Assembly (NCBI GenBank): GCA_964187785.1
Contig: OZ076409.1
Span: 37,326,001-37,390,000 of the forward strand
Length of the DNA: 64,000 bases
Direction of reading: 5' to 3'
Source of the DNA: Amphiscolops sp. MND2022
Lineage: Eukaryota
Below are positions 9,488 to 49,194 of this stretch, piece by piece (positions within the stretch are counted from its first letter, which is position 1; each line of letters starts with the position of its first letter). Both the position numbers and the translations under genes were made by a program. Under the pieces are notes generated by a model. It saw nothing but the letters and a program-made list of their open reading frames with translations, made no database searches and was not told the DNA's origin.

Positions 9488-12400
9488 AAACGCCACGACT
9501 TTACACAAAATCAGCACAAAAACCAAACTCCGCCGATGACTGGCAGCATCAACTGAGTCCAAAACCCACAAAAACATCAGCCTTTGACACCGACTCAACA
9601 ACGCAAAATTCTCAACAATCAACACTGGAAACATCACCAGAAGAACTATATGAACTCTTTCAAGACACACCAAACAACTACTTCACAAAACAACCAACCC
9701 ACCCCGAAACAGACCCAAACTTAGACATTCACCACGAATCTCCCATCAAAAACCATGTCACAATAAAAACTTCTTGCGATGATCAAAAACAACCCTTATT
9801 GAATGAAGACCTCTCTGAACACATACAATTTGACAAAGAACGAAATTTATCATGTCTACCAATCTCAACCTCTTTGACATTGAAGCGAAAACGCCATATG
9901 TACTACATTCCAATGGACTTCGAAAAACTCACACTTGATGGTCTTATTGATACCGGAGCCCTTACAAGTGCAATCTCCGAACAAGAGCTCAACAAAATCA
10001 AGTTGCTAGCAAATAAAGCAATAAAAGAAACTGGTCCCCCACCAAACTTTCAAATTATGGTGGCCAATGGACAACTGGAAGTCCCGATTGGTACTGTTCT
10101 ACTTGAATTTGAAGTGGCCGACTTCATGTTGAAGGAAAATTTCATCATTATGAAAAACTTACCAAACCCGTTAATCGGATTGTGTTTTCTCCGCAGAAAT
10201 AACGCAATCTTTGATGTCACCCAAGGCATCCTAACTTTCCCCTTTCAATGCAGCTCAAACCCGACACCCAAACATCAATACGACAAGCAACACCATTGTT
10301 TGCTGAAAATACATATACCTTACAACCAGGCGAAACTCTAGCAATTGCAAGCAGAATGCCCCATCTGATGGACCATGACGCAACTGGAATAGTCACCCCA
10401 TCACATCAGTTTGAAAACCACGATAGCATCTTCATCACTGCGTCACTCAGTACTGTCAACAACAATGCTATCGGATACCAAATCATCAATTTTTCTGATT
10501 TACCATATACAATAACCCTTGATACCCATTTAGCGGATTTCAAGATACTGACACCAGAGCAAATCAAACATATACAGCCAGTGGACCCAGCGTTACTGTC
10601 CTTCATGATACAACATGAGGAAACAACGGACGGCTACATAAACGAACTCCTCAAAGTTCCAAAAACAAACTCAGAACAGGAGTCATACTGGTTCCCTACT
10701 CCTGAAGAACCAGGTGACCCAGCAACATACACTCCATTTCAACAACGAATCTACAACGAAATCCCAGAACTCAAAGAACTTGAGAAACTAAACCCACAAC
10801 ATAACGAAAATTCCAGAAAAACTTTCCTTTCAAACTTCGACTGGACCGACACAACACTCAGTCCTGACGAACGGAAAGAAATTGAAGAAATTCTCATTGA
10901 ATTTCACGATATTTTTGCCAGACACCGTTTTGACATTCGCATAAATCGCGAATTCAAAGTAAAACTAGCGCCAAACGATGAGAGGTCTGCCTATTGCCAA
11001 AATCTGCCAACTCCTATCAATCTCAAAGATGATATTACAGTAGAACTTGCACTCCTACATAAGTATGGCATCATTACAACACTACCTTTTTCTAAATACG
11101 CAAGCCCAATATTTGCACAACGCAAACCCAACGGGCGCCTCAGACTCCTGGTTGATCTAAGGAAAATCAACAATCTCATCACCGAAGAATACGTCAACAA
11201 CAACCAACCAGTAAGCACCCTATCGGACGCAGCCCAACATATGGCAGGGAAAAAGCTTTTCTGCAAATTGGACTGCTCCCAGGCTTACCACTGCCTGCAG
11301 ATGGCGGATTACCAATCCATCCAAATGCTCGCTTTCAATTTTGCAAGTAGAACATTCGCTTATCGTCGCCTTGCCCAGGGTCTCAGCAGATCACTTTCTG
11401 CCTTTTCAAGCTTTATGAGAGAGTACCTGGACAGAGCAATTAAAGCGGACCAATGTGCACAGTATGTCGATGACATTGGCATCGCGGCAAATGACACAAA
11501 ACAAGTCTGTACGAATATCAAAACTGTTTTTGAATGCATACGCAGTGCAGGATTAAAACTCTCCATGTCAAAATGCCACTTCGGACTCAAACAGGTCGAC
11601 TTTCTGGGACGCACAATCGCACCACATGGAGTTGCCCCTCAAGCCGACAAAGTAAAGGACTTCCTCTCAAAACTTCGCTTCCCGAAATCAAAAAAGGCGT
11701 TACAGAGGTATATCGGGTTTCTAAAGTATTACCGAAATTACATACCACGCCTTTCGGAACGGCTCTCACCGTTCTTCAAACTCCTCAAAGAAACTTCCAA
11801 ATTCTATGTACCGACAAATTTGGTAGAAGACTTCGCGAACCTCAACAAACTCCTAGAAAATTCTTGCCAGTTAGCATTAAAACAACCACTGAAAAACAAG
11901 CAACTTATAGTCATGTCCGATGGAAGTTTCACAGCTGCCGGATATGCTATCATGATAGAGGATGACCCAAACCAGAAGCTTCACTCAAAACGCAAAACAT
12001 TTGCACTCATAGCTTTCGGTTCAAAAACTTTCAATCCTACACAGACGAAAATGTCAATTTATGCAAAGGAATTTCTGTCAATATTTTTTGCATTTGTTGA
12101 ATTCGGACACCTCATGAGGGGTAGTACCTTCCCAGTAATCGTGTTTACAGACAATCGATCTGTAACCAGATTTTTCCAACCAAAAATGATCCCTCCAGCA
12201 CTTTGGAATGCCTGCGATTACGTATTGCAATACAATTTCGTGATCGCCCATGTAGCTGCAACAATGAACACTGCTGCTGACTTCTTATCTAGAACGGAGG
12301 TCGACCCAACAGAAAAACTGGAAATGACAATCCGCAACGACATTCACAGGAAAGCGATTGAAGTGAATATTCAATCAACTGGCATCGTTGAAGAAGAACA

Positions 12401-14350
12401 AATTTATGTTCTCCCAGATGATGAAATTGACAATAATCAACTATGGGAAGAAAAGCAAAACATTCGAAATCAAGCCCAAACCGAAACACACAATGATCCA
12501 GAAAACGCTGTTTCCGAGCTACAACAATTTCACAAACCTACATCAGGTCTGATCTCCTGCTCTTCGGGATACTTTAAGGATAATGCAAGAATCCGCCTTG
12601 AGCAGAATAACGACATAGTCCTAAGAAACCTCAGAGCAAAACTCAAAGGAAACCCTTTTGACGAGAATGAACTAGCGTCAGACTACCGATACCAGCACTA
12701 CTTACAGAACATAACACGAATAGAGATTAAACAAGAAGTCCTCACACGTAAATACTACACCGACACTGGAACTATATCTCGCAACCAAATCCTCCTACCA
12801 ATCCAACTCCTAGACGAATTTCTTCAGGCCTTACATGGTCATAATTCAAACCATCCAGGAATTACGAAAATGATCCAAGAAGCAAGACAAAAGTACTACT
12901 ACCCATGTATGGCAAAATACATCAAAAAATGGGTTAGTAATTACCAAATCTGCATCCAAACGAAACGCATAAACAATGATCTCCTAAGGACAGAACTTCT
13001 TAATTGTCCGGAATGGTATCTCGAACCGGAAGACATTTTGCAAATGGACATTATACCAAACCTTCCCCCTAGTGGAGGCTATGATCATATCATCACAGCA
13101 ATAGGTGTCTTCTCAAAATACTTGTTTGCCTAACCTGTAACTCGTGTTACTGCAACAGCAGTATCAAGAGTTATCATGGACATCTTATGCAAACACACAT
13201 ACCTTCCAACAACGATAATCACGGACACTCAATTCAATGCACAAGTAACTCACGAAGTTGCGGCAGTACTTGGAATTGAAATGAAATACGCAACAATGAA
13301 ACATGCCCAAACAATAGGACTCCTTGAGAGAACTCATGCATCATTGAAAATGCACCTAAAAGCCGCAACAGGCGAATTTAGGAACAACTGGCATAAATAT
13401 CTCCCCTTGGCAGTCCTCAATCACAACACCACATACCATGCCTCACTCGGTTGTGAACCTTCACGAGTCTTTCATGGTGGATACCACACAATATCCTGGA
13501 CTATAAACTTGGATATAACGTAACCCAAGATACCAACCGCAATTGGATGTAGCAGAAGAAATTCAGAAACGCATGAAAATCCTTCTGGATCAAACCAAGA
13601 AGAACATCATGCAATCATACCTCAAACACAAAGCTTACTATGATCGCAAAACGAAAGCAGCTCCGCTCGAAACAACGGATTACTGCTACATTCTTAACCC
13701 AAAAGCCGACACTCAAGCGACAAAAATACCATTCCGAGAATTCAGATGGTGCGGAGCATATAAAGTAGAAAAAGTGCTCCCTAACAATAACTACATTGTC
13801 CGGAGATTTGGGACTAACAAAACGCAACTATTACATAGGATTCGTCTACGAAAATTCACTCCGCAAGCGCCCTTAGCAGACATTTTTGTCCGAGAAACCG
13901 ATTGGCAAAAAGATGACCAAATGCCTATAACAAATGATGATCTATATGCCCAATCATGGAACACGAACTTTGGTTCAAATCCTTTTGATGATGGTCCTGC
14001 AGAATATTCATTAAATACTGAAGACACAGAATACATCCCAATTCAAATACCCGAAGAAAACCGCCCACCCTCCCCAGGATCTTCAGAAATAAGTTGGGAA
14101 AGCCCAGTGGAACAGACCACTGAACCGGATGAAAACCATGAAAATGAAATACCACAGCAAACCTTTGAAGATGAACAAAGTACCCAAAAAACTCAAAAAG
14201 ATGCAAGAATTTCAGTTAATGATGATATCCAAAAAAACCCCAGAAAATCCACAAAAAACCCCATCACAAGAAGAACCCATAAATACCCGTGGTGATAAAT
14301 ACAACTTACGTCCTAACCCCAAACCAAACTACTCAGACAAATACAGATTG
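9480..14350 (+). pseudogene. pol: Pol of element A (PR, dUTPase-like spacer, RT, RNase H, integrase), a few lesions
   Basis: LIDTGA protease; QYVDDI RT; VMSDGS...YAKEFL...FTDN RNase H; HGHNSNHPG integrase Zn region; QMDI/ITD/LERTH core; C-terminal KYNLRPNP. Frameshift ~10245, stop at 13131, later frameshifts. Confidence 0.95.
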
Positions 14351-14447: not shown

Positions 14448-14724
14448 TCTTATAGAGTTAGATTATCGTGAAAGGATAACTAATGTTTATTGTCGTATTC
14501 ACTGTGAATCTTGTTTCAGGTCAAAAGACGGGAAGCAATACTCTATTCATATAAGACCATATGGCAACTGAGCCAATGTTAGAGTTGGAACTCTATAGTT
14601 TTACTGGTACACTATTTGTAAATAAGTATTGAAATAAATGTACAAATTGGCTAAATGTTTATGTCACTCATATGTCTTTAATTAATTGTTTTTGAGTTTC
14701 TTCTTTCGACAGAGCCCTGTCACA
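14448..14724 (-). repeat. 3' LTR of element B (277 bp)
   Basis: Direct repeat of 17795-18077, preceded by the PPT on the minus strand. Confidence 0.93.
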
Positions 14725-14827
14725 TTCCCCTCTCTGTTCTTTACGTTCGGTCAACAAATTTGAACATAAATAGTTGTGGCTCTTCTATTTGCTTCCGCTA
14801 GTTGTTAATTATTTCTACAGTGGTATT

Positions 14828-17795
14828 TAATCTTCGTCAGATGATGAGATTGTAATGACTTCTGGTGGTTGTTCATTTCCGCAGATCATTACCGGATTTC
14901 CGAAATAGTTTGGCGCTTTCTATCTCGTTTTGGACGTTCGTTTGATTGAATGGATTGTTGGCTGTTTGTTTCTTCTTCTTCTGAGTTTTTGGGTTCAGTT
15001 TTTGGGGTTTCCTCCCATGTAGTTGTTGCTTTTATTGGTGCTTTTTGTCGCACCCTTTTCTCCTTCTCTTCATCAGCGGATTCGTTTGCTAGCTGTTCCC
15101 AATTGGCTAGTCTTTTGAATTCTGTTGGTAGATTTGCCTTTTTTTGATTTCTTTGGTTGGCCGCTTTTGATTGGTTGATAGCTGCTTTCTGGTGGCTGTT
15201 CGTAGTGCAGTTTGCGTGCTGTTTGCTTGCTTGTTGAGGGCTGCGGTTCTTTTGTTATTGCCACGTCGCGTTTGCTGAGTGTAGTTGGTTGGCGTTTCTT
15301 ATTGCTGATCGTTATTGTATGATCTGTTTCACGAGTTATCACGCCCTTCTTCTTTTTGTAGAGGTCATCTAATTTAGTACCTCTGGCTCGTTCTCGTACA
15401 AGAATTTCCGAATTTTGTTCTCCCGGACATCTCCAATTGAAAGGTATTGTCGTTATCTAAAACATTGTAGTTTTTAGTTGGTTTAGTAGTAGTTTAGTTC
15501 AATTTGGGATGAAGCGTTTAGCTGATTTACCTCTCCCAAGTACGATCTAAGTTCTTTTGAGCTCTTTGGGATGAGTTTTTCTGTTATAGCTTGTACTTTT
15601 GAAATGATTGGTTTTATCCCGGTTTGAGACAGTTTGTATCCTAACCATTCTATTTCTTCTTCAGCAAATTTGCATTTTTCCCACTTTAGTCTAACGTTTG
15701 CGTTATCCAATCTTTTTAGTACTTGTTTTACTGCTTCGAAGTGTTTTTTTTGTGCCCTCTGTTACAATTTGTATATCATCTAGAAAGACATACGTGTTTT
15801 GTAAATTTGCTAGTTCTTTGTGCATTGCTTTTTGGAACTCTGTGGGCACTATGGTTAATCCATAAAATCCTGTAATAAATCTATATGTACCGGTGGCTTT
15901 TCCACCTATAATTTGGAAGTTACAGTGTTTTGCTGTTCCTTCTTCCAGCGGCACTTGTCCATACGCGTAACGCATGTCTAGTGACGTGTATAATGCTTTT
16001 TCTTTATTGTCAAGTTGTTCAGCTACTAAATCGACCAAATGTTCTAAATTTGGCATTTGGTATTTGTCTTTCACAATTTCGTTATTTAATGCCCTCGCGT
16101 CTAGTGCGATTTTCACATTTTTATCTTTCTTCACTGTGATTACCACAGGTTGGATGAATTGTTTATCTGTTACTTCATTTACTTTTTCTATATGTCCTTC
16201 TTCCAATAGTCTTTCAATTTCTTTTTGTACCGCCTCTTGTAATTTTACTGGTACTCTTCTACCTTTGTTGTTTTATTTTGACATTTTGTTTAAATTCGAT
16301 TCGCACCTTATGTTTGTTTAGTTTTCCTTCTCGCTCGAATGAGTCCTTAAATTGCTGTTTTAGTTTTATTTGTTCGTTTTGTTTGTCGTTCCAATTTTCT
16401 GGTTTAGTTGTCTCGCTTGGTTTAGTTGTTTTAATTGGTTCTGTAGTTCCACTTGTTATTTTACAAATAATTGGTTTACCTTTATTCTGATTGGGGGAGA
16501 CGAACTTATAGTTGAAGGCGTTTAACCAATCTCTTCCGATTAGTGATTTGGCTCCTTTTCCTGCTACCAGTATCCTCGCTTTTTGCATTTTGCTTTCTCC
16601 AACTTCTAGTTGACAGAATACGTAGCCCAGTAGGTTCAGCTTTCTTTTGTTGAAGTCTATGTATTCTTCATCTTCGGGTAGTTGTCGTATGAATAATGTA
16701 TTTCTCTTCATTATTCTTTTAATTTCCTCAATTTCAAAGATCGTTACTGGTGAACCTGAGTCTACCATCGTCTTGAATTGGTTACCATTTATCTTCCCGC
16801 TCATGAAGAATTGTCCGTTTTCTCCTCCTTCGATTGTTAATACGATTTTGTCTTCTTCTATCATTGAGCCTGAGCTACTGTCTTCCCATTCGTCTATTCT
16901 TTGTATGCTTTGTGCTGGTGCTTTTATGATTTTTCTGCTTTTCGCAAAGTTTCCTGCACCTCTGGTTTGGCAGCATTTTGCGAAGTGTCCCTTTTTTCCA
17001 CATTTCATGCATGTTATTCCCATCGCTTTACATTCTTTAAGGTTTTGTGGGCTGAATGGGGCCCCGCATCTGAAACACTTTTTTGTTGGTCAACAGCGTT
17101 TCGTTCCTGATGTTATGTTGTTTATTTCGTTCGGTTCTGGCTTTATGTTTGGTTTATCCATTTTTTCGAATGATTGTTGTCCTAGTGCTCCCTCTTCGTA
17201 TGATATTGCAAATTGAATAGTGTAGGCAATTGTGCTATTGGGTTCTGTGCACAATTTCCGTTGTACATCTTTATTATTCATATTCACTATGAAGACATCT
17301 TCCACCAGACTTTCAGTTATGTTTCCAAAGTTACATTTTGCTGCCAGTCCGTTTAGTTCGTTCCAGAATTGTCTCAGCGTCTCGTTTTCCTTTTGTTTAC
17401 GGCTCAGGAATTTAAATCGATCCAGTGTTTTTTGGTTTTTCAAAACAGTCTTTACATGTTTTGATTAAATCTTCCAGGGTTATTCTTGCTGTGTTTACCG
17501 TTTGAAAATTGTCTGAAATTGTCTTCCTTGCTGCCATCCCCAATGCCAGGTATAACACACTGTTTGCTTTCTTCATTGCCGTTGCTTCTTCCATGTCTCC
17601 CATGAGACTTTTGTCTTTATTTCCGGTAGTTTTTGTAAGTTCTGCTACCGAGATGTTGCTTTTGGCCATAAGTGCGACTTCGAATAACTCCATCCATTTT
17701 TCCCATTCTAGTTCTGGAGGTTTTGTTGCCTCCTGCCAGTGAATAGGTAACCCAGCAATTGAAGAGCTGGTTCGTGGTTCGCCTTGCAGCGACAT
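14828..17795 (-). pseudogene. gag-pol of element B, frameshifted and deleted
   Basis: ORFs 17412-17795, 17090-17443, 16259-17023, 15703-16206, 15483-15710, 15073-15342; ends PPEVITISSSDED*. Confidence 0.88.
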
Positions 17796-18077
17796 GTTAT
17801 AGAGTTAGGTTATCGTGAAAGGATAACTAATGTCTATTGTCGTATTCACTGTGAATCTTGTTTCAGGTCAAAAGACGGGAAGCAATACTCTATTCATATA
17901 CATATAAGACCGTATGGCAACTGAGCCAATGTTAGTGTTGGAACTCTATAGTTTTACTGGTACAGTATTTGTAAATAAGTATTGAAATAAATGTACAAAT
18001 TGGCTAAATGTTTAAGTCACTCATAAGTCTTTAATTAATTGTTTTTGAGTTTCTTCTTTTGACAGAGCCCTGTCACA
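17795..18077 (-). repeat. 5' LTR of element B (283 bp)
   Basis: TGTGACAGGG...ATAACA on the minus strand, followed by PBS-like TGTCGCTGCAAG; carries an extra CATATA relative to the 3' LTR. Confidence 0.93.
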
Positions 18078-18159: not shown

Positions 18160-21100
18160 TTAGTTCTTCTTAGCCTTTCCACTCGTCACTTTTGTCTTTC
18201 TGGCACCATTTTTTCCTCCTTCGGCACATCGGGATAGAGACACTGTAGCCTTCCCAAGAACTGGCTGAGGATCTGGAGAACTCGTGGGCTGGATGCTCTA
18301 CTCAAAACAGATTCATCGGGGTCGACAGAGAAAGGATCTTCCTCTCTTCTTACAACGGCACTCTTGTATGCACTTTCCAATTTAGACTGAAATCTGACAC
18401 GTCTTGGACCGCTACCTTTTAGGAAGTTCCAAACAGAAAATTTGCGATCATCCAATAAATCACGTCCTCGCCCGATAAGACGAAACACACGACTGAGCAA
18501 TCGAGGGTCTCGGAAGAGACTTGACACGTTTGGGACAGTCTTGTAGGCCAGCTGGATACTCGAAATGCATGAATGAAACACCTCTTCGTCGGGTCCCAAT
18601 TCCGGCATGGGTACAACAAATTGACTAGTGATCTTCGCTTTCGGTGGCAAACACAGACAGGAGTACTTAAATACCCGATGTAGCTCTGGCCGACAGTGTA
18701 ATTCATAACAGGAACAAAGGAATTCAAACCAATCATCTGGCCGGCAGACCTGACTCGAACGAAATTTCGTAACCAAAGACCTGTATTGACTCACAGCCTT
18801 TGTTTTATCACTAACTGTGATCCAGCCATGGGAGGAGAAGTAAGTTGTCAGCATTTCAATTGCAGGCAGATAATTTTTCTCTTCACCATCGAGCATCATG
18901 GCAGAATCGAAACTGGATAAACCTCTAATCAAATCTGAAGTCGCAATCTTATGCTGCAACAGTATTCGACAAAACGCTTTGTAAAAAGCAATCGACTGTT
19001 CGATGAATTTACTGGGTGTTGACAGCTTGCTGGAAGTCACTAACTCGTGAAAATCAGAGTTCAGAACGAATTCATCACAACTCTTGAAAGGGAGACCAGG
19101 CTGGGTTAAATCGAGCTTCTGATAACTGTCCCAGTCGGAAACACTGCCAAGGATACTATCTGGAAGTATACTTTGGAGCTGGGAAAAAACGAATACCGCA
19201 AACTGGTTAAACAGGCGAAATCCAGCTTCATAACCAGTTGGTGCTTCAGAAAATGATGAGTTGTCTGTAACACAAATATCAAAAACATCCAAAAACGATA
19301 AAAGTAAAACCATGAGTCACATATAGTTAGGGTGCCAACAACTTCACTATGCTGTATAGTACGAGATATAATTGGAGCAGATGCGGCATCCTACGGTTTT
19401 AGCTGTTTTACGATCTACCTTTTAGTCAAATATGCGGCATCATGCGGAAACAGGGACGCCGCATATGCGGTATCATACGGAAAAAGGGATGACGTACAAA
19501 CGGCATCCCGCGGCTTTGGTGTATTATTCAAAGAAGCGAGACCTAATGAAAATCGCAAGTCACATCTGCGTGAAAGAAAAACTACAACGAAAAACGATAC
19601 TACTGATATAAAGGCACAATGAAAACAAGTGATAAAAGAGTACTAACAGTGATCCAAGACACAGCGAATGACAAAAGGCCGGGCCAGGTATGCAGTATCG
19701 AGCCGGAAACATTCGTCTAGCGTACTGGTCTAAAAAACCGAAACGGTTAATCAACAAAGTGATTATGGCTACAAAAGAAACCTAAAACGAAATATTACCT
19801 CACGCATGTGGTATCGGAAGGTTGGCAATCGGGAAACCCGATTCAGGTGATCCAACACCCTGTCTCAGTGTGCAGATAACAGGGCTATGATGGATGAGGC
19901 CTCCTCTAGTGTGTATGTCAAGTGTGTTACGCACTAAAAGAGAAGATACCATGAAGTTAAAGGTTAAAAATATATTATGAGACAGAGTAAAACAGGAAAA
20001 TGTACCTTGTGTAACACAGGAATTGACTGCAACCACTCCTGACCCAGCGCGGTTCTCAGTTTCATCAGTAAGAAATCCAATATCGTCCTGAAGTCGTGTC
20101 GCTCAAGAATCCTGGATGTTGGCATGGATAAGCATTTTTCTAACTCAGTAACTCCAAACCAATTGACGACCATTGGGCAAGTTTTCCTAGACAGTGATCG
20201 AGTAAGACAAGTCGCTAACCTCTCGTCAAAATTAACAAGGCTAAGGCAAGATGGTGGATTCTCTGATAGACTGAAGTAAGACGAGAGCAGGGAAAGAAGT
20301 CTTTTTGGTAACAATAACCCACGGGGCCCAGATCCAAGACAAACTTGGTAATAAACGTTCCCCGACCAGAAACTCAGTAAGAGGAAATTTTTAGTAAAAG
20401 AACTCTCATAAGATAGAAAACAAACTCCAGCTGTTCCAGTAGTCACGACACAGTAATGCATTAGTTCGCGAAACATATATGTAACGATAGCCTAAACGGA
20501 AGGTAAAATTATGACCTTTAAAACATGAGTAGAATAAAATTGGAGCAGAAAAATACTTACATAAATGCGATGTTGACTCCATTTGTGAGTAGTGATTTGG
20601 GCGCTGCTGCTTGGTGACAATCTTGAGAGACCGAGCAGGACATTTATGTGTCCAACATGGCGGAATCCGTTCTCGAGAATGCAGATTTGAGCCAGAACAC
20701 TTTCACTCGGGCTGGTAACAGAACTGAATTCCGGCAGCCGCTCTTGCCCGACTAATAAACGGCACCCATCTAATTGAGGGCGATTGAATGCGCTTCTCTA
20801 GCTCTCCGTTTCGTTTCTTCCAGTCCTATCCCCCGTAGTTCATTTTCTTCTTGGACAAATAGAGGTAACCCAGGATTTTCTAAACGGATCCTATGTTCCT
20901 TTGTCAAATGAGCTTCGGTTTTGTAATGAGATAATAATTCTAAAACCCCTCTGCTCATCAGGGACAGCTCTATCTTGCAAACTCGACACCACCATTTGTA
21001 TGGGTTCGTGTTTCTGTCGAGTGGTCCGGTGGCGAAATATTGGACGACAGGATGTTTTTTCAACATGGCTGAAGTTAGCGAGTACTTTGGTCTTCGTCTT

Positions 21101-22665: not shown

Positions 22666-22825
22666 CGGCATTATGCGGAATTATGGGTTCCAGATACAGC
22701 TCTATGCGGCATTATGCAGAATTACGAGTACCGAGTATGCGGCATTATGCGGAATTACGAGTGCCGTGTATGCGGTATCATGCGGAATTACAAGATGTTG
22801 AGTATGCGATAATATGCGGAATTGT
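22666..22825 (+). repeat. Degenerate ~33-bp tandem repeat (TATGCGGCATTATGCGGAATTACGAG...), about 5 units, in the spacer between the divergent accessory genes of A
   Basis: Repeated units are directly visible. Confidence 0.85.
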
Positions 22826-23737
22826 ATATATCAGCGGACAGTGAAGACAGAAACAGTCAATGACGAGATTACGTAACAGAATTCATTCTTGCCGCCTTGG
22901 AGTCAAATAATACTACGTGGCAAGATGAGCAATACATGTGAATAATATAGACTCACTTTGCATATGATGGATGATTAAACAACCATTATTGGAAACATGG
23001 AAATACATCTAGACGTTTGTTATTGAAACCCAAACTTAGCACAGTATATGACCACCCGATGCTCAACAATAGTATATTTTGATCCCAGTATGGTATTGAT
23101 ATGTGAGATAAATCACAATTACATGCCCCTAACGCACTTTTTAAGTGCAGGACTAGTGATGCCATGAATACCTTAGATAGATAACCTTATGTTCGAACAC
23201 TTAGCTAGCAACTTTAAACTTTTCTTTTACAGAATTTCAATATGTTCTTTCAATCTAGTAATGTAAATTTGGATGAATTAACCCTGTTCAAAATGCCATG
23301 AATGAAAGTTGTATTGTGAACCTAATTCATCTTCCGAAAAAGGAAGGAAGTTGTTGACAAGCCATTTAAAATATCAATTCGATGAAGAGCAACAAGAGAG
23401 ATAATTTTACGAGATGAAACTGAGAGAAACACTTGAAATTGAATTGTTTAGACCTCATTGACGGAAGCAGATCAGTCTCATCTCTTTGAAATATCCGACC
23501 CCATCGCCCTAAACTCTATATAAGGATGGGAGGTGAGGCAAAAATCACAACCCCAAATCTTTTTCGCGGGAATCATCACAGTCAACTGGAGCAGATAAGA
23601 AAACCACCATAAGGTCTCATAGCAATTTCAGAAACAGTAACACATCTAAAGCACATCTCAATCTGCATCAAAATAGTTCCAAACGAGTAAAACTCATAAA
23701 TTCTACCCTTTTGATATCAGTTAATCTCACACAAATT

Positions 23738-24802
23738 ATGGATAATCTACAATTCAATATTGAGGAAGAATTAATGTTGCCATCGTTGTCCCCTGCAGTG
23801 ATCGACGTCTCAAGTGACTCAGGCGATGAATTCATTGTTCATCCGGGAGATCTGTCAGAAATAGAGGACAGATTCAGACCGGGTGGCCCTCGATCAGATG
23901 TCATGACTGGCTTCATGGGAGCGGCAACAGCTTCCCTGTTCCCCACCCAAACGAGAAGATCAGACGAAGACGAGATAATCGACATCTCTGGGACCCGAAT
24001 TGAGCGCCAATTAGTGGATTTAATGGAAGAAGACCAACACGATTACGAATCCCCACCAACCTCATTTATAGACACCGAACTAGAGGACTCTCCAATGTCT
24101 CCGTGGGAATCGCCCCACAGGGTTGAGGGTTCAACAAACAGTTATGGGAGGCCGACAGCCGCAATTTTACCAACTCCCCGTGACAATTCTCAAAGAAGTA
24201 TACCAGTGAACAGGCCTGCTGCGAACTACACACCAAATTTTGTGGCTAGCGCAAGTAACTTCCAAATAACACCGCTCAAAGTTTCTAACAATCATCAGCG
24301 AACGATCTACCCAAGCAACTACAACCAGCAAGAAATAATCATCACTGCCAATATGAACCCACCTATGGCTGAAAATATGGTGGTTTATAACAATGCTCCA
24401 CTGATGATACAAATACCCCCAATCGGAAGAAGAATGGACATTCCTCATCAAACCCTTGTTACGAATAATCAACAAGTGTTCAATTTCCCTTTCAATGTGG
24501 AACACAGTTCCAAGTTACTGCTGATCCCGACCAGTGAAAGACAGATGCCTAGATTGTTCCCAACCGTAATGCCACACGTTGCAGGCTTTTGCGATTGGTG
24601 TGGAAAATGCTATGATCAACTAGCATAGGAGAGTTTGGGCGAGTATCTAATAGCAACCGCCTACGACGCCGAGACAGTGAGAGACCGCGGGGTAAGATCC
24701 CGAGCATTCATTGATGGTTTTCAAGCTGCTCTCTTCTCGTTTAAAAGTGCAGGACTGTCACAACCCCACGCTTATGCTGGAGTTGTTGGGCAACAACCCT
24801 AA
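23738..24802 (+). CDS. Sense accessory ORF of element A (acidic, SIM-like motifs, CxxC); one in-frame TAG at 24626, otherwise open into the 3' LTR
   Basis: ORF 23711-24628; the frame stays open for 57 more codons (ESLGEYL...AGLSQPHAYAGVVGQQP*) and stops at 24800-24802 inside the LTR; TATA-like CTATATAAG at ~23516. Confidence 0.7.
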
Positions 24803-26201
24803 ACGAGAACAGTTAGGCATCTTCAAAAGAAGGAACAAACAGCTTGATGACCTGAAACTTTATACACTTCAAACTTTCCCTTCTTTTGTTTTATGTTGCT
24901 TCGACTTTCACTTCGCAATTTGGAATTGCCATGTAAAATTCTTAGATTTTTTAATTTAACGGTTACAGCTTAACAAGTGCCTAAACAATGATGTTTTCAC
25001 TTTCTGTTGACATGAATGACTTTATTTAGTCACAAACTTTCAATTTAGAATGGTTTAATACTATTTCTGAGGTAATGTTGTGAACAGATTGTCATTGACA
25101 CATTACTGTGGAAGTTTAATGTTGATAAGTATACGTCACCATGCAGTAATCCGAGTGACGTATATGCGTCATCCTGTGGATTTGCGCTTATAACATGTAT
25201 TTTTGGTGCTTTTAATGAGAGTTGATTATGCGTCACTATGCGGAAAACTGGATGACGTATGTGCGGCATCCTACAATCTTCCAGGGGCTCGTTGCTTTCG
25301 TATAGTTAGATAATTGGAAGTCATGCAATCACCATTTGTAAGTTATAAATAGAATTACGTCACTCTGACGTTAGTTTATTCATAGCATTTTTGAATTACT
25401 GACAACCCTAAAATTGAGTGTCATGCTTTATGATTTTTTCATTTGTAAAAGTGCAGTTTACTTCAGATGAAATATAACTGGTACCAGAGACAGTTGCTTC
25501 ATAACAGTAAACCCAAAAACTGTAAAAGCAGTTTCCTTGATAACTCTTTGTTTCACCGGGATTGTTTTCACAACATTGACGAATAAATTCAAAGTCTTTC
25601 TGCACTTTAACCCAATTTTCCTCTCGAGCAAGATGGGAAATAGAAGAAATCGAAGGTCCAGAAGGTTAGAAACTCCGTCCCCGGAGAGAGAAACAAGCGA
25701 AGTACGCATAGAAACTCCAAGTCAAGGTAATGAAACTTTAACTAATGTTAAATTACAAAGTCAAGAAAGTTTAGGTGAAACTGATTTGAGACCCAGATTA
25801 GTTGAACCCAGCCAAATCAGCAATGAAATTCAAGCTTGGACCGAGATTTTCGAACAGAAAAACAATGATAGAATCACTAAAATGAGAGAAGAAATGGAGA
25901 ACAAATTAGAGGCGATTCTGATGGAGATAAAAAGTAGTAAGAGCACATCTATGACAACTAATCCTAGATCTGAGATGAACGAAATAGAAAATATGCAACC
26001 ATCGGGATCCGGGGGTAAAAGGTCTATGGGAGTAAACGCATCTGATAATGAAAATATAGACTCTGAAAACGAAGATATCCCCCCTCAAAGCCTCAGAATT
26101 GAGAGATTTAAGGCATCCCGCTAAACCCATACACCAAAATGATACAACATTAGATGCAACAATTATCTTTAACGAAGAATCTGATGAGGAGGATTATCAC
26201 A
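24756..26201 (+). repeat. 3' LTR of element A (1446 bp), carrying a copy of the Gag N-terminal ORF
   Basis: Direct repeat of 6871-8309, followed by TSD GTACC. Confidence 0.96.
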
Positions 26202-26589
26202 GTACCCTTGTCAAGATCCAAGATCATGGCAAATCATGATACATGGAACACTTGTCAAGATCATTGCAAGGGTTGGCAAGATCTTGACAAGATAACCATG
26301 GTTTGTCATGGTTCTTACCAATGATAACATGTCAAAAATTCGATTAGACTATTTCCAGTTATTCAATTGAATATCGGTTGGCGTTTTTACGGAAAAAAGA
26401 CGTTAGTAGTGATTTTTCTTCCACCCTCACACAAGCTGTCCACTTTTAATTTGTTCAGGTTCATAGCTTCCTGGAGTAAGTCTAAAATGCATTCACTCTG
26501 CTTTTTCGTCGTTCACAATGCTACACGGCACCATAGGGTCCCCTCTATGATTCATGTTATTGTTTTCAGTTTGGGAAAAGCATTTGCTA

Positions 26590-27360
26590 CCCAGGTTGTA
26601 ACGCCATGGTCCGCCATCCATGATTCACCCATGATTTATGGCTCGCCATGGCATGCCCCATGACATGGGCAATGTATGGAAATCCATGAATCATGGATGA
26701 ATCATGGATGGAAATCCATGTGCCATAGCTGAAAAAAATTGAAACGGGCCGTTCCGATAGCCAAAACTGCCTTCAAAAAAGATGGATATGGTCCTATTTT
26801 TGACCACTCTCCATTACTTGAGCTTAAACAAAATGAAGTTAGAAGCATAATGTCGGGCATTCACTTCAACTGAAAGCAAAGCATTCAGTAATTGAAAAAC
26901 TCCTTTATTCTGGGTTGGAGGCTCTCTGCTAGTGATTTATAATATAAATATACCACACGTGACAGGACTCACGACGAGTCCCAAAAATTCCGTCAAAAAC
27001 CATCCCCAAAACCATCAAAAACCCACCTAATGCTAACGAAAATCTTACCTATCTCGCAGCTTCAGGATACGCGGTGCCGAAAAGCGTCCTTAATGCTATC
27101 CCATTAAGGGCCATTAAGGTAACCCTCAGAAACAAGAGACAGAATTAAGAGACAAAAACTGACACAGTAAGAGAAAATGTTCGACTTTGAACGAAATTTT
27201 CTACATGGCTCATCATGGATGAATCATGGGTCAAAGTCATGGATGATGATGGGCCCTGCCATGAGTCATCCATGATTTTCCATGAAAGTAGAAGTAATGG
27301 GTCGAAAAATCCATAATCATGGATGATTTTCCATGAACAGGCAATGACAGACAACCTGGG
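26590..27360. mobile_element. MITE with CCCAGGTTGT TIRs, TA flanks and CATG-rich subterminal repeats
   Basis: TA|CCCAGGTTGT ... ACAACCTGGG|TA. Confidence 0.8.
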
Positions 27361-28939: not shown

Positions 28940-29165
28940 ACTAAATTGTGACACGCGTGCAAATTTCACGCCCCAACGATGATTTCGAATTTTTCACTTC
29001 TTGATTTTCTTGATAAGAATCTTAACCAAAAATCTTTTCAAGAATTTCAAGATTTTTTAACGGTCAAGAATAATTCAAGATCTTATCACGGGTTTCAAGA
29101 GGTAACGGGAATTTGCAGGAAAATCCAATATCTTGGAAAGAATTTCAAGATATTTTACACTCGGT
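28940..29165. repeat. Partial copy of the CCCAGT/CCGAGT-TIR MITE family (see 62789-63486)
   Basis: Reverse complement of ~62789-63000; ends TATTTTACACTCGG|TA. Confidence 0.7.
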
Positions 29166-29934
29166 AGGCTATCAACTTTGTCTCGAAAGTGTTTGTGTAA
29201 GATTTAGCCGATAGCTTTAACAACGCTTTGAAGATTGCTCCACTATCACTTAATTAAACCCGTAGGTACCAATCACGAGACAAAATACGGCGGAGTATCC
29301 GCATAAATTTTTTTCAACTCCGAAAAAAAAGTAAGATAAATTTAATCGAAGGCAGTTTGTGTAGTTGCCAATATTTTTAGCTTCATTTGGGGGTTGTTTC
29401 CGCAATGCAGAGGTGTTAGGACTTTCTCTAGATAGAAGGAAAGCGGTTATTCTAGTTAATTTACAAACTTCAAATGAGCAATACAGTTAATAGTTGAACA
29501 AAAGATATCACATTCATGAATAATGGAAAAAATGCACGAACATATTCGTAGGTAACACAAATAACTGCACGACTCATACTCAAACAAATACTTAACAACC
29601 GTTTTAGCAATGTAACCGACGAATGGGTTGAGAGATACGCGCTTAGTTTCGATTGTAGATTCAAATAAGTCGCCGTAATTTCCCTAACGTTCTTGGAGTG
29701 AGAGCAATTGAATCCCAACGACGGACGCGAAGTATTTGTCCCGCACGCACGATTGGAACGCGAGGGGTTCCCAACAACAGCCTTGCAGTACCTGGCCTCT
29801 CATCACGCACGGTTCAGCCACTGATTTGTAGGGTTGAGATTCTAACGTCTCAGAGTCCGCGATTCATTCCCCACGATCAAGATGATAACAGTTCCGTAAA
29901 TGGGGCGGCCTAACTTGTTGGTTTTTTAGGGAAA

Positions 29935-32146
29935 TGTCACGACCCGCTCCCGGTCGTGGGTGTGAATGGTGTTTTGCACTTGGTCGTGGAAGAGGTCGCG
30001 GCTACTGCAAGTATCATTAAACTAAACTGCTTAAAACTAATGTAATTCTACTTACAGTACAGCTAAAACCACTTGTAGATAATCTCCCAAAACAAAGTCT
30101 AACGTAAGCGTTACAGAAGATTTTCAGAAATGACTCTAAACTAGCTAAAACTTCCGATCTAATGTTTTCACACGCAACACCGTTTTATTTCCGGTTTTGT
30201 CTTCTGAGTTTTCCATTCCAATCTAAATACTAAATAATTTTGCAGACGGGATCATTTTGGCGCTCCACACTAAGATGAAAACACAGAAACAACGTTTAAC
30301 TCTGAGATCTCAACGGAGTCCATAAGATCTAAAATGAAAGAGCATACAAAAACAGAGCGGAAATGTATTCCAATATTAAAATAGTTGTTAAATATCTACT
30401 TAAAATCGCAGTCAAGTGATTTTAAGTATATGTTTAGAACGTTATGACAGCGTCACTCAACTAGGCTAGTAACGGGTGTTTCTATTTTTACGGACCAATA
30501 GCGTCGCTTGCCACCGGAATTATATGAGCTCGTACCAATAGAATTACGCTTGGTTGCCCCTAGCAACGCTTACTAGCTAAGAAAAGAGAATAGAATCGCC
30601 TACGCTCTCCGTTTTCACTCCGCTTGCTACTGCTGCTCAGCTATAAGCAATCTTAATACGTACGTAGCATCTACGGAGCAGATTGTAGAATTGTATTCCG
30701 CTCTTCAGCTATAAGCAATCTTAATACATACGGAGCATTTACGGAGCAACTTAAGAAATTGTAACTAAGAAATACTGCAATGAATGAATTCTTTGAAAGA
30801 TTTTTTCTGAATCGATGCACCTTAAAAAATCTTAAGATTAAGTTTACATAAAGAATAGTTGTACTGTGAGATAGGATTATAAAGTGAACGTAACACTCGC
30901 GTTGCTTTGAAGTTTGTATAAGTTTTGATATGATGCAGTAATACTCATTCCAGTAATCTCTCCTATTTCTTTTCTATTCTTGCCCAAACCTCCCCCGGGT
31001 GCTATGATGTTGTATTTTTATACGTCTTCTTAGACCTTTGAGTCTGAATACTTTGTGTGCTAACTGCTAAACAAGTTTTGGCAAACGGACCATTTCCGTG
31101 GCATTTAGTTGATGCTAAAAATCAAATGTTTTGTCTTGTGTTCCAATGCATGTAAAGTTCGTAATAATTTGCCATTCTCTAGGCAATTCGTTTCTGAAAG
31201 GCTTCTCAGCATCACTTTGTTCTTCATTTTGATCTCCCAAGTGTTTCTGGCTCTAAAATATTTACATCCATCATAATTCCGTCGCTATTTTTGAGTGTCA
31301 TTCTTTTACTCCGAATTTCAACTTTCAAGTTAGGAAGCTGACTAATTGATCACGCCGTCGTGCCTGCGTCGATGAAAATGAAAGCTAGACATTTGTTTTG
31401 CCGCAATTTTGAAGCTTAAACAGGAAATGGATCGCCTGAACGAAAATGATTTCACCAAAATTTTACGGAACACTGACGCAACTAGTAATTTTGATACCTG
31501 ATTTTATGACGCGGGACTGAAATAATATGAATCATTAGCGCATTTTGTTGAACAAAACCGATTTTTGTGATACCTAGGAATTTTAGGTGAGGAACAAATG
31601 ATGCTGGAAAGGTATAAATATGTAAAACATACATGTAAATCAGTTAGTTTTTTGACCTGCTTTGTAACAACTAGTTCTGTTCCGTTTTCATAACGTGTTC
31701 AAAAGAAAACTTAAATATTTGAAGAATTCAACTTTTCCAAAGATACTATCTCTCTCTCTCGATCGAAATGACAACTAGAAGCCAGAAAGGGAAAGCTGTA
31801 GCCGAGTTAGTCTCCGGTGATTTCGAAACCTCTGTAACCGAAAACTTTCCACCTGAAACCCTTGTAGCTAGTTCTAGCAAGATTCCTAGGATAGAACCAG
31901 AGGGTTTGGCTGAGATAAAAACGTCTCTAAGGAAAGATATTATGTCTGATCTAACTAGAATACTTGCAGAAAACCAAAAAGAAATGCTTAAACTGATAGC
32001 ACCTTTAAACAAGAAACAAACTGTTCACACGAACGTCCAAGACTCAGACTCCGAACCAGAGAATCTTTCCGTAGCAAGGACGTCTACCCCCATCAATACT
32101 CATAATGCGACTAGCTCTAAAACAATACCGGTAAATAGTCGTAACA
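29935..32146 (+). mobile_element. Solo LTR (2212 bp) of a subfamily of element C
   Basis: TGTCACGACCCGCTCCCGGTCG...AATAGTCGTAACA; near-identical to the C LTRs in the middle; flanks GGAAA and AGGAA are not a clean TSD. Confidence 0.9.
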
Positions 32147-32292: not shown

Positions 32293-34507
32293 TGTCACGA
32301 CCCGCTCCCGGTCGTATTTTTACTTGCTGCTCTGGAATACCAGGACTCGGCAGAGGACATGGACAAGGGCAGAGTAAACATTTTTAAACTTTGTTAAACT
32401 AATCAAAATTCTACTTACAGTACAGTTAAATAAGTGCGAATAATTTTCCAAATACGGAATTCAACGTAAGCGGTACGGAGGATTTTCAGAAATGACTCTA
32501 AACTAGCTAAAACTTCCGATCTAATGTTTTCACACGCAACACCGTTTCATTTCCGGTTTTGTCTTCTGAGTTTTCCATTTCAATCTACATACTAAATAAT
32601 TTTGCAAACGGGATCATTTTGGCGCTCCACACTAAGATGAAAACACAGAAACAACGTTTAACTCCGAGATCTCAACGGAGTCCATAAGATCTAAAATGAA
32701 AGAGCATACAAAAACAGAGCGGAAATGTATTCCAATATTAAAATAGCTGTTAAATATCTACTTAAAATCGCAGTCAAGTGATTTTAAGTATATGTTTAGA
32801 ACGTTATGACAGCGTCACTCAACTAGGCTAGTAACGGGTGTTTCTATTTTTACGGACCAATAGCGTCGCTTGCCACCGGAATTATATGAGCTCGTACCAA
32901 TAGAATTACGCTTGGTTGCCCCTAGCAACGCTTACTAGCTAAGAAAAGAGAATAGAATCGCCTACGCTCTCCGTTTTCACTCCGCTTGCTACTGCTGCTC
33001 AGCTATAAGCAATCTTAATACGTACGTAGCATCTACGGAGCAGATTGTAAAATTGTATTCCGCTCTTCAGCTATAAGCAATCTTAATACATACGGAGCAT
33101 TTACGGAGCAACTTAAGAAATTGCAACTAAGAAATACTGCAATGAATGAATTCCTTGAAAGATCTTTTCTGAATCGGTGCACCTTAAAAAGTCTTAAGAT
33201 TAAGTTTACATAAAGAATAGTTGTACTGTGAGATTATAAAGTGGATTATAAAGTGAACGTAACACTCGCGTTACTTTGAAGTTTGTATAAGTTTTGATAC
33301 GATGCAGTAATAATCATTCCAGTAATCTCTCCTATTTCTTTTCTATTCTTGCCCAATCCTCCCCCGGATGCTATGATGTTGTATTTTTATATGTCTTCTT
33401 AGACCTTTGAGTCTGAATACCTTGTGTGCTAACTGCTAAACAAGTTTTGGCAAACGAACCATTTCCGTGGCATTTAGTTGATGCTAAAAATCAAATGTTT
33501 TGTCTTGTGTTCCAATGCATGTAAAGTTCGTAATAATTTGCCATTCTATAGGCAATTCGTTTCTGAAAGGCTTCTCAGCATCACTTTGTTCTTCATTTTG
33601 AACCTCCAAGTGTTTCTGGCTCTAAAATATTTACATCCGTCATAATTCCGTCGCTATTTTTGAGTGTCATTCTTTTACTCCGAATTTCAACTTTCAAGTT
33701 AAGAAGCTGACTAATTGATCACGCCTGCGTCGATGAAAATGAAAGCTAGACATTTGTTTTGCCGCAATTTTGAAGCTTAAACAGGAAATGGATCGCCTGA
33801 ACGAAAATGATTTCAACAAAATTTTACGGAACACTGACGCAACTAGGAATTTTGATACCTGATTTTATGACGCGGGACTGAAATAATATGAATCATTAGC
33901 GCTTTTTGTTGAACAAAACCGATTTTTGTGATACCTAGGAATTTTTAGGTGAGGAACAAATGATGCTGGGAAGGTATAAATATGTAAAACATACATGTAA
34001 ATCAGTTAGTTTTTTGACCTACTTTGTAACAACTAGTTCTGTTCCGTTTTCATAACGTGTTCAAAAGAAAACTTAAATCTTTGAAGAATTCAACTTTTCC
34101 AAAGATACAATCTCTCTCTCTCTCTAAAATGACTACTAGAAGCCAGAAGAGGAAAGCCGTAGCTGAGTTAGTGTCAGGAGATTTTGAAGCTTCTTTAGCT
34201 GAGAACAATTCTACTGAAAACCTAATAGCTAGTTCCAGTAAAAACCCTAGACTTGAGCTCGAAAACTTGGAGGAGATAAAGACAACTCTGAGAAAAGAGA
34301 TCATGTCTGATTTAACGAAAATACTCGCTGAAAATCAAAAGGAAATGTTCAAACTAATAGCACCTTTGAACAAGAAACAAACTGTCCACTTGAATGTTCA
34401 AGACTCTGACTCTGAACCTGAGAATGTTTCCGTAACAAGGACGTCTACCCCCGTCAAAACTCATACTGCGACTAACTCTAAAACAACACCGGTAAATAGT
34501 CGTAACA
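32293..34507 (+). repeat. 5' LTR of element C (2215 bp)
   Basis: TG...CA direct repeat; TATA-like GGTATAAATA at ~33973. Confidence 0.96.
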
Positions 34508-35406: not shown

Positions 35407-38400
35407 AATCGCCGCGCCTACGATTTGGGAAAAAGTAGACGCGAGGGCGTGCACGATAGAGGACCCCCAAACAGGTATGAGGAAGATTTTTTACCCGAAT
35501 GTAATGAAGAACCAACTCAAGACTGGCAACGCCGTTCGAACGTAGGCATGATACTCAGGCATAACGCCAGACACCCAGACGATCCAACGCCACTACCCCA
35601 GTGGATAACAGAGTCACCCGATAACTATGCGACACTCAAAAGACCGTTGCCGGAATCAAAAACAGACCGAATTTATATATATGACAGAGACTACAGATGT
35701 GACCCTTGGGATGAACCAACTATCTATGACACAAATAAACTGTCCTTCAAAATCCAAGTCTCAAACCCTCAGGCTCAATCTACGGGGATTACAAACCTAC
35801 CATCACCACCGTCACCGATCCTGAAAAGAACAACACCATCCCCAACAGTACCCGTCACCATCACGTCCACACCAATAGACGCAGAGAACATCATCTGCAT
35901 TGAAGATAAAACAATATGGGCACAACAGGAAAGAAGAAAACGAGAGAATGCCGACCCCCAGTAACCCCTCCAAAAACCGCGCCCGTCACGGCACTGACGC
36001 ATGACGACGTAGAAATCACGGAATGTCCCTCAAAACTGCCCGAAGATCTAGATGCCATCAAAGAATTCATCCAACATGACAAAGACGACGACTTCATTCC
36101 GTTAATGTCTGCCATCGCTCTCAAGAAGACAAAACGAATGCTTTTTCTACCAGTTGAATTCAACACAGTCAAAATCGACGCTCTAGTCGACTCAGGTGCG
36201 TACATTAACGCTATTAGTGAAAGGGACGCTGAAAAACTCCGACAGCACGCTACCCCCACCCCCTTTCAAAGTGCAGTATGCCAATGCTGAATTAGAACAA
36301 CAACCACTTGCCACGTACACCCTACGTTTCAAAATAGGGGATTACACCTTTGAAGAAACATTCATCATCATGAATCAAACGTCTTTCCCCATAATCGGAT
36401 TAGCGTTCCTACGTAAACACGCCGCAATCCTCGACACGGCGCAAGGAACCATCGACTTCCCTAAAATCCAAATCACGATGGCGCTCACAGATGAAAGACA
36501 AAAATGCAATCCCAAGCCCATCACAATAAAGACCGAAGCCAAGCATACAATTCCAGCACACGCTACCCGAATCATCTACGCAACAATCCCTGTGAGTATT
36601 GAACACTCAATAACTGGCACAATACAACCTTTACCACAAATTGACGAATGCGCGAAGGTAATAGTGGCCCCAGCAATTACCACAGCCAGAGACAAAAAGG
36701 TACCAATTAAAATCGCCAATACCACGGATTTCCCATACACAATAGCTACTGACACCAAAATAGCCGAACTACAGATCCTAAAACCCGAAGAAACGAAGAT
36801 GATCCGTCCAGTCGACATAGCCGCCCTCAATCTCCTCACTGACCATGACGATGTGGTCACGTACATCAATGCACTAATGCAAGTAGAACGGCCCGAAGAC
36901 AATGAAGAGAAATTCTGGTTTCCGACTCCAGAACACCCAGGCAACGAACAAGAACATTCACCCATACAAAAGCGAATCTTGAAAGAACTGCGAGACCTTG
37001 CCGGACTAGAAAAACTTGACCCAATCGAAAACAAAGAGTCTCGCAACAAATTCTTATCCATGTTTAAATGGACCGATTCACTGATTGCGGGCAAAGACCG
37101 TGAAAACCTCGAGGACACCATCGTAGAATTCAACGACATCTTCGCCCGACACCGGCTAGACATCGGGATGAACACACAATTCAAAGTCAGCCTAACACCA
37201 CAAGACGACAAACCAGTCTACACACAAAGCCTACCCGTTCCCATTAACCTCAAAGAAGACCTAACTGTGGAACTGGCCCTCATGCACCGATACGGTATCA
37301 TCACGACACTCCCCTTCTCCAAGTATGCCAGTCCTATATTTGCACAACGGAAACCCAACGGCAAGCTGAGACTGCTGGTGGATCTGCGCAAAATCAACGC
37401 ACTCATAGCAGATGACTACATCAACAACAACCACCCTGTCAGCACCCTCTCAGATGCGGCACAACACCTAGCAGGGAAAAAACTATTTTGCAAGCTCGAC
37501 TGCTCCCAGGCGTACCACTGCCTCCAAATTGCAGATCAAAGGTCAGTAGAATTACTTGCTTTCAATTTTGCTAGTAGGACGTTCGCCTACCGTCGCCTGG
37601 CACAAGGACTAAGCAGAGCTCTATCAGCTTTTTCGAGCTTTATGCGTGAGTATCTGGATTCTGTCATCAAAGCAGACCAATGCGCACAATACGTAGATGA
37701 CATTGGCATCGCTGCAAATACAACGGAACAGCTCATAAAGAACATCAGAGCAGTCTTCAAATGCATTAAAAAGGCAGGACTAAAACTAACCATCGAAAAA
37801 TGTCACTTTCGAGTAACACAAATCGAATTTCTTGGCCGAACCATCACCCCTGACGGAGTAGCCCCGCAAGATCAAAAAGTCAAAAATTTCCTCTCCAAAG
37901 TCCGCTTCCCCAAATCCAAAAAACAAGTTCAAAAATACATTGGCTTTGTTAACTATTGCCGCAATTACACCGCGCTTGTCAGCAAAACTCATCGGCATGT
38001 ACGAACTTCTCAAAGCAGACTCCAAGATCAGAATTTCAGAAGAACTTGTCGATAACTTTAAGGAAATTAACGCCAGTTTAGCGGAAGCTTGTGGACTTGC
38101 ACTCCGACAGCCCATAACAGGCAAACAGTACGTCCTAATGACGGATGCAAGCTTTCGTGCATCAGGCTACGCCCTCATGATTGAGGAGAACGACGAACGC
38201 AAAATACTCTCCAAACGAAAAACCTTCGCACCAGTAGCGTTCGGATAACGAGTTTTTTCACCTGCACAACTGAAAATGTCCATCTACTGCAAGGAATTCT
38301 TAGCAATCTACCATGCCTTCCTTGAACACAGCCACATACTATGGAAAACAACAATCCCAACGCTGGTCTTAACAGACAACCGCTCAGTAACTAGATTCTT

Positions 38401-49167: not shown

Positions 49168-49194
49168 GGTGGCCATTGAGAGGCACGTGAACTC

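Follow-up and report, generated by a model that had tools for sequence, protein, structure and literature searches.

What does the sense frame at the 3′ end of this retrotransposon encode, and what might its product do for the element? The frame, ORF4 (23738–24802, plus strand), lies in element A of the window, by which we mean the whole 64,000-nucleotide stretch of DNA that was analysed. The initial annotation had read it as a candidate accessory factor with several SUMO-interacting motifs (SIMs) that acts on SUMO-dependent silencing. Animal hosts silence retrotransposons via SUMO-dependent recruitment of histone methyltransferases, and with the ORF4 family one can ask, concretely and at low cost, whether the LTR elements of animals respond to silencing as DNA viruses do. 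The patterns of conservation and codon use described below indicate that ORF4 is a real gene under protein selection.

Element A and the frame that enters its 3′ LTR

Element A is a Ty3/gypsy LTR retrotransposon. Self-comparison of the window places its LTRs, which are 95.4% identical, at 6871–8309 (5′ LTR, plus strand, 1.44 kb, TG...CA ends) and 24756–26201 (3′ LTR, plus strand). The TSD GTACC precedes the 5′ LTR (6866–6870) and is repeated directly after the 3′ LTR. Together with the LTR termini (TGTCACA...ACA) and the primer-binding site TGGTGACAGG (8310–8319, plus strand; the same in a second element, B), this 5-bp TSD agrees with the Ty3/gypsy criterion of TG...CA ends, a TSD of 4–6 bp and a primer-binding site. 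Gag-pol (7742–14295, plus strand) is split over several frames, and its Pfam domains follow the Ty3/gypsy order of capsid-like, protease, RT, RNase H and integrase. An identity with Troyka was considered and rejected: Troyka, in the available excerpt of its description, has CG termini and a 3-bp TSD, unlike the TG...CA termini and 5-bp TSD of element A. An unrelated LTR element (14448–18077, minus strand; LTRs of about 275 nt, AAGAC on both sides) is nested in element A and is not part of it; the sequence beyond belongs to A and carries a broken antisense ORF. A weak dUTPase-like Pfam match (E 0.028) lies between protease and RT, at about 36535–36775 in the pol of element B and in the matching part of the A pol. 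Relatives of pol with 33–66% identity occur on short metagenome contigs (L001–L017), so the lineage is not restricted to this assembly.

The element A LTR appears to be under protein constraint at both ends, with the ORF4 tail in U3 and the gag head in U5. The gag ATG (7742) is located inside the 5′ LTR, and the gag head (7742–8309; 25633–26201) extends for about 190 codons ahead of the primer-binding site, through which it is read in frame. Because gag begins within the LTR and reads through this site, U5 is about 600 nt long and coding. Element B has the same gag-in-LTR arrangement (34130–34506). At the other end, a TATA at 7453 and an AATAAA at 7691 in the 5′ LTR place the ORF4 tail in U3 and imply that an ORF4 mRNA would end near 25600. 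The bel, nef and sag ORFs overlap U3 as well. A site resembling a primer-binding site, TGGTACCAGAG, is found within the LTR (7589–7599, 25480–25490), 150 nt upstream of the gag start, and may be what is left of the boundary of an earlier and shorter LTR.

ORF4 comprises 354 codons from an ATG at 23738 to a TAA at 24800–24802, with one in-frame TAG at 24626–24628. The sequence bore out these coordinates, the single TAG and all four motifs quoted in the initial annotation, as well as its statement that the frame crosses the LTR start (24756) as G-L-S-Q-P and ends 47 nt into the LTR. The tract ahead of the 3′ LTR, which had been called a PPT, is indeed purine-rich but is interrupted (AAAAGTGCAGGA) and not a classic PPT. 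One stop falls in the ORF4 frame, against 17–22 in each of the other five, and GC content is 46.6% compared with 36–37% in the surroundings. By inspection the N-terminus is acidic, with 30 D/E versus 7 K/R in residues 1–125, and several conserved hydrophobic-acidic helices are predicted in the N-terminal part. The highest hydropathy over 19 residues is 0.86, in agreement with the claim that ORF4 lacks a transmembrane segment and is not env-like; a Pfam scan of ORF4 returned no matching family.

The window copy of ORF4 is broken. Its stop at 24626 is a fault of that copy: among 260 retrieved relatives, 42 are full length, defined as at least 300 residues and open through CxxC to the LTR-encoded cysteine, and are therefore open across the break. 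One family member is identical to the truncated product of the window copy, and many of the remaining relatives have been reduced to fragments or carry frame shifts, which is what ageing copies should show. A search with the part of ORF4 before the stop yielded 62 proteins among 373 candidates (36–90% identical), and a HMMER profile of 25 relatives yielded 270 matches at E ≤ 0.001 among 1.84 billion representatives (150 of these matches were listed). The 16 clusters examined contain unnamed ENA proteins only, so the known range of ORF4 may be one host or few. Clusters at 90% have up to 51 members, and families with an intact ORF are multi-copy; the copies are related by descent, and their counts are not independent. 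Mean pairwise identity across 25 rows is 0.83 in the C-terminal block (270–341), 0.55 in residues 1–125 and 0.33 in the middle (150–245). Eleven representatives (<65% identity) are mutually 25–61% identical, and the frame is open over about 350 codons across subfamilies that are 25–60% identical. Judging by their ends, which run through the same LTR-start codons, the relatives would occupy a corresponding position in their elements. The earlier description of a non-env accessory gene that ends in U3 is supported, and the gene is conserved.

A conserved SIM-like motif, a lysine desert and a C-terminal domain

Three SIM-like motifs had been proposed in ORF4. SIM1 (VIDVSSDSGDE, 23798–23830, plus strand) is well supported as a conserved phospho-SIM-like motif. 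When 158 proteins were aligned to the N-terminal profile, 133 covered SIM1; the four-residue core has at least three V, I or L in 114 of these rows, and core plus serine/acid tail is found in 112. The serines behind the motif, at +1 (131/133), +2 (126/133) and +4 (128/133), are better conserved than the hydrophobic core and are predicted from the sequence to be phosphorylated by CK2. Among the 19 rows that lack the core are some with one change only and those of the subfamilies that diverge most (LVKCSSSS, IFNNSSSS). SIM1 agrees with the definition of a phospho-SIM with CK2 sites given in the available text of PMC12751080, which also describes SIMs as loose, fast-evolving motifs. The SIM1 region has a pLDDT of 33 in a full-length model of poor overall quality (39.9), and the N-terminal three quarters of ORF4 are predicted to be mostly disordered.

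The picture of multiple SIMs did not hold up. SIM2 (EIIDISG, 23972–23992, plus strand) is SIM-like in this subfamily only, the family retaining IDT(A/T)G, and its core pattern is present in 3 of 23 rows; for SIM3 (IERQLVDLMEED, 23999–24034, plus strand) the figure is 9 of 23. At the SIM3 site, a hydrophobic-x-x-hydrophobic-hydrophobic helix pattern occurs in 22 of 23 rows and the model puts a helix there; this conserved acidic segment, weak as a SIM, fits a predicted amphipathic helix better. ORF4 contains four loose SIM cores, compared with 3.8 ± 2.0 in 5,000 shuffles, so three SIM-like cores are not above chance. A strict pattern of core plus serine/acid tail, composed after SIM1 had been seen, was matched by 141 of 20,000 shuffles and occurs four times in the 127,996 six-frame residues of the window: in the ORF4 of A, in the ORF4 of B, in the final codons ahead of the nested element's PPT and once in the antisense region of B. 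In the nested element, the last frame closes with VITISSSDED just before the PPT (14859–14830, minus strand), which is possibly the tail of its frame-shifted pol.

ORF4 also contains a lysine desert (23738–24589, plus strand), with 2 lysine codons in 284 in the window copy. The published criterion for such a desert is that lysine is missing from at least 150 residues or from 50% of the chain (excerpt of PMC10665810), and ORF4 falls within it: a lysine-free run of at least 150 residues is present in 40 of 42 full-length copies (median 256.5), and the longest run in the window frame is 195 residues. In the region before CxxC, the 42 copies together have 35 K versus 578 R in 11,561 residues; one of them has a psi-K-x-E site. 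According to the same excerpt, fewer than 10% of the proteins of eukaryotes have deserts of this size, which are conserved in proteins of the ubiquitin system, including the SIM-bearing SUMO-targeted ligase Slx5. The 11 representatives below 65% identity, picked from 43 and sharing ancestry, contain 14 K versus 206 N in 2,861 residues, while six control ORFs of A and B (3,224 residues) contain 232 K versus 196 N. Representatives and controls do not differ in E:D (odds ratio 1.05), and their Q:H shifts in the opposite direction (1.55), so the lysine shortage is not a third-position bias. In the window copy, the AAR:AAY ratio is 2:21 in frame versus 16:10 and 12:23 out of frame; such AAR avoidance in the ORF4 frame only is evidence that points to selection on the translated protein. 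Lysine-free tracts can also arise in low-complexity regions: among 21 ORFs of at least 200 aa, the longest (239 residues) is in a gag at 51188, with ORF4 second (195). This gag tract is made up of Pro/Thr/Ser and belongs to an LTR element at 48894–58002 with 274-nt LTRs, presumably of Bel/Pao type by its motifs. The ORF4 of element B has 6.6% K, and the desert is not common to A and B.

That ORF4 is a chance frame, or is kept by DNA or RNA signals near the LTR instead of as a protein, is largely refuted and in our view highly improbable. The best-conserved block does adjoin the PPT/LTR junction, and the L-S-x-P common to A and B exists because the LTR terminal bases are fixed. Against such a reading stand the roughly 350 codons that are open at 25–60% identity, the GC content raised over that nearby and the avoidance of AAR, not AAY, in this frame only.

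Conservation in ORF4 is highest over the last ~80 residues. This C-terminal domain (24551–24787, plus strand) has a CxxC knuckle, two predicted helices, a conserved R-D-R-x-x-R-S-R at the start of the second helix and a third cysteine position encoded in the LTR. For a natural 120-residue fragment, AlphaFold with 60 rows gave a pLDDT of 86–93 over residues 51–100, with the knuckle and both helices; the predicted fold of the C-terminus is a helical hairpin with a cysteine knuckle. Three cysteines, the third encoded within the LTR, are invariant in 25 rows, and two are near-invariant in the 60 rows; a RING pattern, with its eight Cys/His ligands, is absent from both sets. The domain may bind zinc; a fourth metal ligand is not evident among its conserved residues. 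Its arginine content is modest.

Element B, the antisense ORF and the expression of ORF4

Elements A and B have a plan in common (LTR, gag, pol, antisense ORF, spacer, sense ORF4, LTR), share the primer-binding site and are 46–57% identical in pol. The ORF4 of B (45444–46282, plus strand), which has an N-terminal LVIDISSDEE, is frame-shifted near 46120 in this copy and crosses the start of the B 3′ LTR in the same frame as in A, a one-in-three chance. A search with it gave 445 candidates, 85 of which are relatives. Of these, 59 carry LVIDISSDEE or a closely similar form, 7 begin with a variant, and 19 begin later or without it; this is the best-conserved part of the B family. The B relatives often have cysteines inside the LTR, and B ORF4 contains a KKKK-type stretch; no basic NLS is evident in the A ORF4 family. 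The profiles of the A and B families align only around the SIM (probability 16.7), the ORFs being otherwise non-alignable, which would reflect either divergence beyond recognition with the SIM kept or separate gain and convergence on the SIM. The B LTRs carry a 68-nt tandem pair in U3. A third copy of the 2.2-kb B LTR (29934–32146, 91.5% identical), located 145 nt upstream of the B 5′ LTR, is apparently a solo LTR.

In both elements there is an antisense ORF that is long and broken and has a CxxC...H...H finger in its N-terminal part, located at 21495–18189 in A and 43779–40925 in B (both minus strand). The A copy, the third ORF of the element, consists of at least three pieces (21495–20773, with the finger; 20491–19967; 19316–18189), which are homologous and colinear with 43779–41538 of B (E 1.6e-8, 2.5e-5 and 3.1e-8; 18–28% identity). 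Database searches with the antisense ORFs of A and B gave no named match; we take them to resemble a hAT-transposase derivative.

The ORF4 mRNA would start at an internal promoter or be spliced, and would end in the 3′ LTR. A TATA-like box upstream of ORF4 (23517–23524, plus strand) is a candidate internal promoter. It is consistent with this role that the 191 nt before the ORF4 start lack an ATG, a weak observation that also holds for 1,964 of 20,000 shuffles. In element B, the TATA lies 790 nt upstream of ORF4 with 13 ATGs between, so B would have to use splicing or a different start. A 33-nt tandem array rich in TATGCGG (22703–22823, plus strand) separates the antisense ORF of A from ORF4, and TATGCG occurs three times in the U3 of A; in element B, no repeat is common to U3 and the upstream region. 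Element A holds 11 of the 13 TATGCGG sites in the window (22672–22823, 7346, 19431–19464, 25237), six of them in or beside the array, and its U3 contains several CRE-like TGACGT sites. Both sequences are candidate binding sites.

Possible functions of ORF4 and known systems

The single phospho-SIM, the long disordered arm free of lysine and the small, conserved domain at the end most likely amount to the design of an adaptor that operates close to SUMO and ubiquitin enzymes. We propose, with a probability of about 45%, that ORF4 is a nuclear adaptor that docks on SUMO via one serine-rich SIM and relieves SUMO-dependent silencing of the element. SIM1 would dock on SUMO-modified silencing proteins, and the lysine desert would spare the ORF4 protein from ubiquitin or SUMO attachment beside the enzymes concerned. 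The effector bound by the C-terminal domain would be either a ligase of the host or the antisense zinc-finger-like protein; the latter would bring in DNA targeting. In flies, piRNA-guided silencing depends on SUMO, which recruits SetDB1 (excerpt of 10.1101/533091), and herpesviruses disperse SUMO-based repression with SIM proteins (excerpt of 10.64898/2026.03.11.710994). Several points count against relief of silencing: all its functional steps are read from sequence, a single conserved SIM with no RING is unlike known SUMO-targeted ligases, SIMs are loose motifs and the SIM1 core is missing from 19 of 133 rows, low-complexity regions can be free of lysine too and B has no desert, and the A family shows no basic NLS. 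ORF4 resembles these ligases (yeast Slx5, RNF4, VZV ORF61/HSV ICP0) in having a disordered SIM-bearing arm and a Cys-containing folded domain at one end, and Slx5, as far as its excerpted description goes, in the lysine desert. We rejected the idea that ORF4 is in its own right a SUMO-targeted ubiquitin ligase, as neither several SIMs (SIM2 in 3/23 rows, SIM3 in 9/23) nor a RING was found. It could act only as an adaptor, not as a ligase of the Slx5/RNF4/ICP0 type, and may work like the targeting half of a SUMO-targeted ligase.

A more specific and unlikely version is a two-part counter-defence cassette, in which the antisense finger protein finds the element's DNA repeats and the lysine-free SIM adaptor captures SUMO-marked silencers, handing them to a host ubiquitin ligase via a new cysteine-knuckle domain. 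If true, the cassette would be a RING-less retrotransposon counterpart of herpesvirus ICP0/ORF61, with the partner gene replaced or remodelled between families and the SIM retained. The 11-residue motif, the 80-residue domain and the lysine desert can each be assayed separately.

A SIM alone gives no direction of effect and could recruit repressors or co-activators. ORF4 might be a trans-activator like Tas or IE2: its acidic N-terminal region would activate, its C-terminal domain would bind DNA or a partner, and the protein would switch on both the LTR and its own internal promoter, with the SIM tuning its activity and silencing not disarmed. The acidic residues 1–125 with their conserved hydrophobic-acidic helices, the TATA box at 23517 and the presence of TATGCG in both U3 and the upstream array fit such a protein. 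Foamy virus Tas, expressed from an internal promoter, activates that promoter and the LTR (excerpt of PMC13220597), and HCMV IE2 raises transactivation through a CK2-phosphorylated SIM (excerpt of 10.1101/655282). Trans-activation alone does not explain the lysine desert, however, and IE2-type action needs an acceptor lysine, of which the psi-K-x-E form occurs in 1 of 42 full-length copies; B has no repeat common to U3 and the upstream region, and the arginine content of the C-terminal domain is modest. We consider this reading rather unlikely, although it overlaps in part with relief of silencing. The opposite direction, in which the SIM recruits SUMO-modified co-repressors and the element limits its own expression or copy number, draws on the same SIM1 evidence as relief of silencing. 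Phospho-SIMs similar in type to SIM1 are found in repressors such as Daxx and PML, and foamy virus Bet suppresses the internal promoter, both points as given in source excerpts. The multi-copy families with intact ORFs (90% clusters of up to 51 members) fit a helper as well or better, and we judge self-restraint improbable.

Equally improbable is an RNA export or processing factor in the manner of Rev or CERV, whose helical hairpin with R-D-R-x-x-R-S-R would bind element RNA while the SIM places the protein in nuclear bodies. The predicted helix-loop-helix with its conserved arginine stretch and cysteines is compatible with this role, and the gypsy element Cer1 has in CERV an export factor that contains Cys and is phosphorylated (excerpt of PMC10309623). 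But CERV, a protein of three domains, arises by splicing of exons in the gag region, whereas ORF4 is a separate 3′ gene; the stretch holds four arginines only, a leucine-rich export-like N-terminal spacing is found in one subfamily only, and the lysine desert is left unexplained. Less probable again is that SIM1 is not a SUMO ligand at all but, say, a CK2 site or a linear motif of a different kind, and that the protein serves another purpose, such as assembling particles or choosing integration sites. The looseness of SIMs and the better retention of the serines than of the hydrophobic core would suit this reading, but two lineages whose ORFs are otherwise unalignable retain the same N-terminal core-plus-tail pattern.

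How does ORF4, with relief of silencing as the preferred reading, compare with known systems? It is already known that further ORFs can lie between pol and the 3′ LTR (excerpts of PMC7264820, PMC11963269, PMC5408684 and PMC13524379); in Ty3/gypsy elements they include the antisense ORFs of plant Retand and Grande with TRP28, the bdelloid ORF3 types and errantivirus env. In contrast to these, an antisense finger ORF and a sense ORF occur here together, and ORF4 has neither a membrane segment nor a Pfam family, its end being encoded by U3. Foamy virus Tas/Bet, as described in the excerpts, are likewise 3′ accessory genes, which ORF4 may parallel through its candidate internal promoter and its acidic region; HCMV IE2, on the same basis, has a phospho-SIM of the kind that SIM1 resembles. 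No sequence link to Tas/Bet or IE2 was found, the ORF4 promoter is a candidate, and ORF4 has almost no lysine for SUMOylation. Like CERV of the C. elegans gypsy element Cer1, ORF4 belongs to an animal Ty3/gypsy element and is predicted from sequence to be an accessory nuclear protein that contains Cys and is regulated by phosphorylation; unlike ORF4, CERV shares exons with gag and has 517 aa, three domains and a G-protein-like fold, and no SIM was found in the excerpt describing it. VANC, which Arabidopsis VANDAL transposons encode and which counters silencing by the host, binds to non-coding parts of its own transposon family according to its excerpted description; it differs in belonging to plant DNA transposons and acting through DNA-methylation loss, and that description contained no SIM. 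In titles and abstract starts, a scope that leaves most subscription journals outside, we found no paper on a SIM-bearing retrotransposon protein that engages SUMO or on the ORF4 family, and the available text of a 2026 review (PMC13269885) yielded no passage on anti-silencing proteins. The transposon anti-silencing proteins that the literature search did find, in excerpts, are from plants.

Elsewhere in the window, short dispersed repeats pair 6000–6291 with 26587–26915 (78% alike) and 28957–29166 with 62787–63000 (85% alike), and a 200-N gap occupies 6292–6491.
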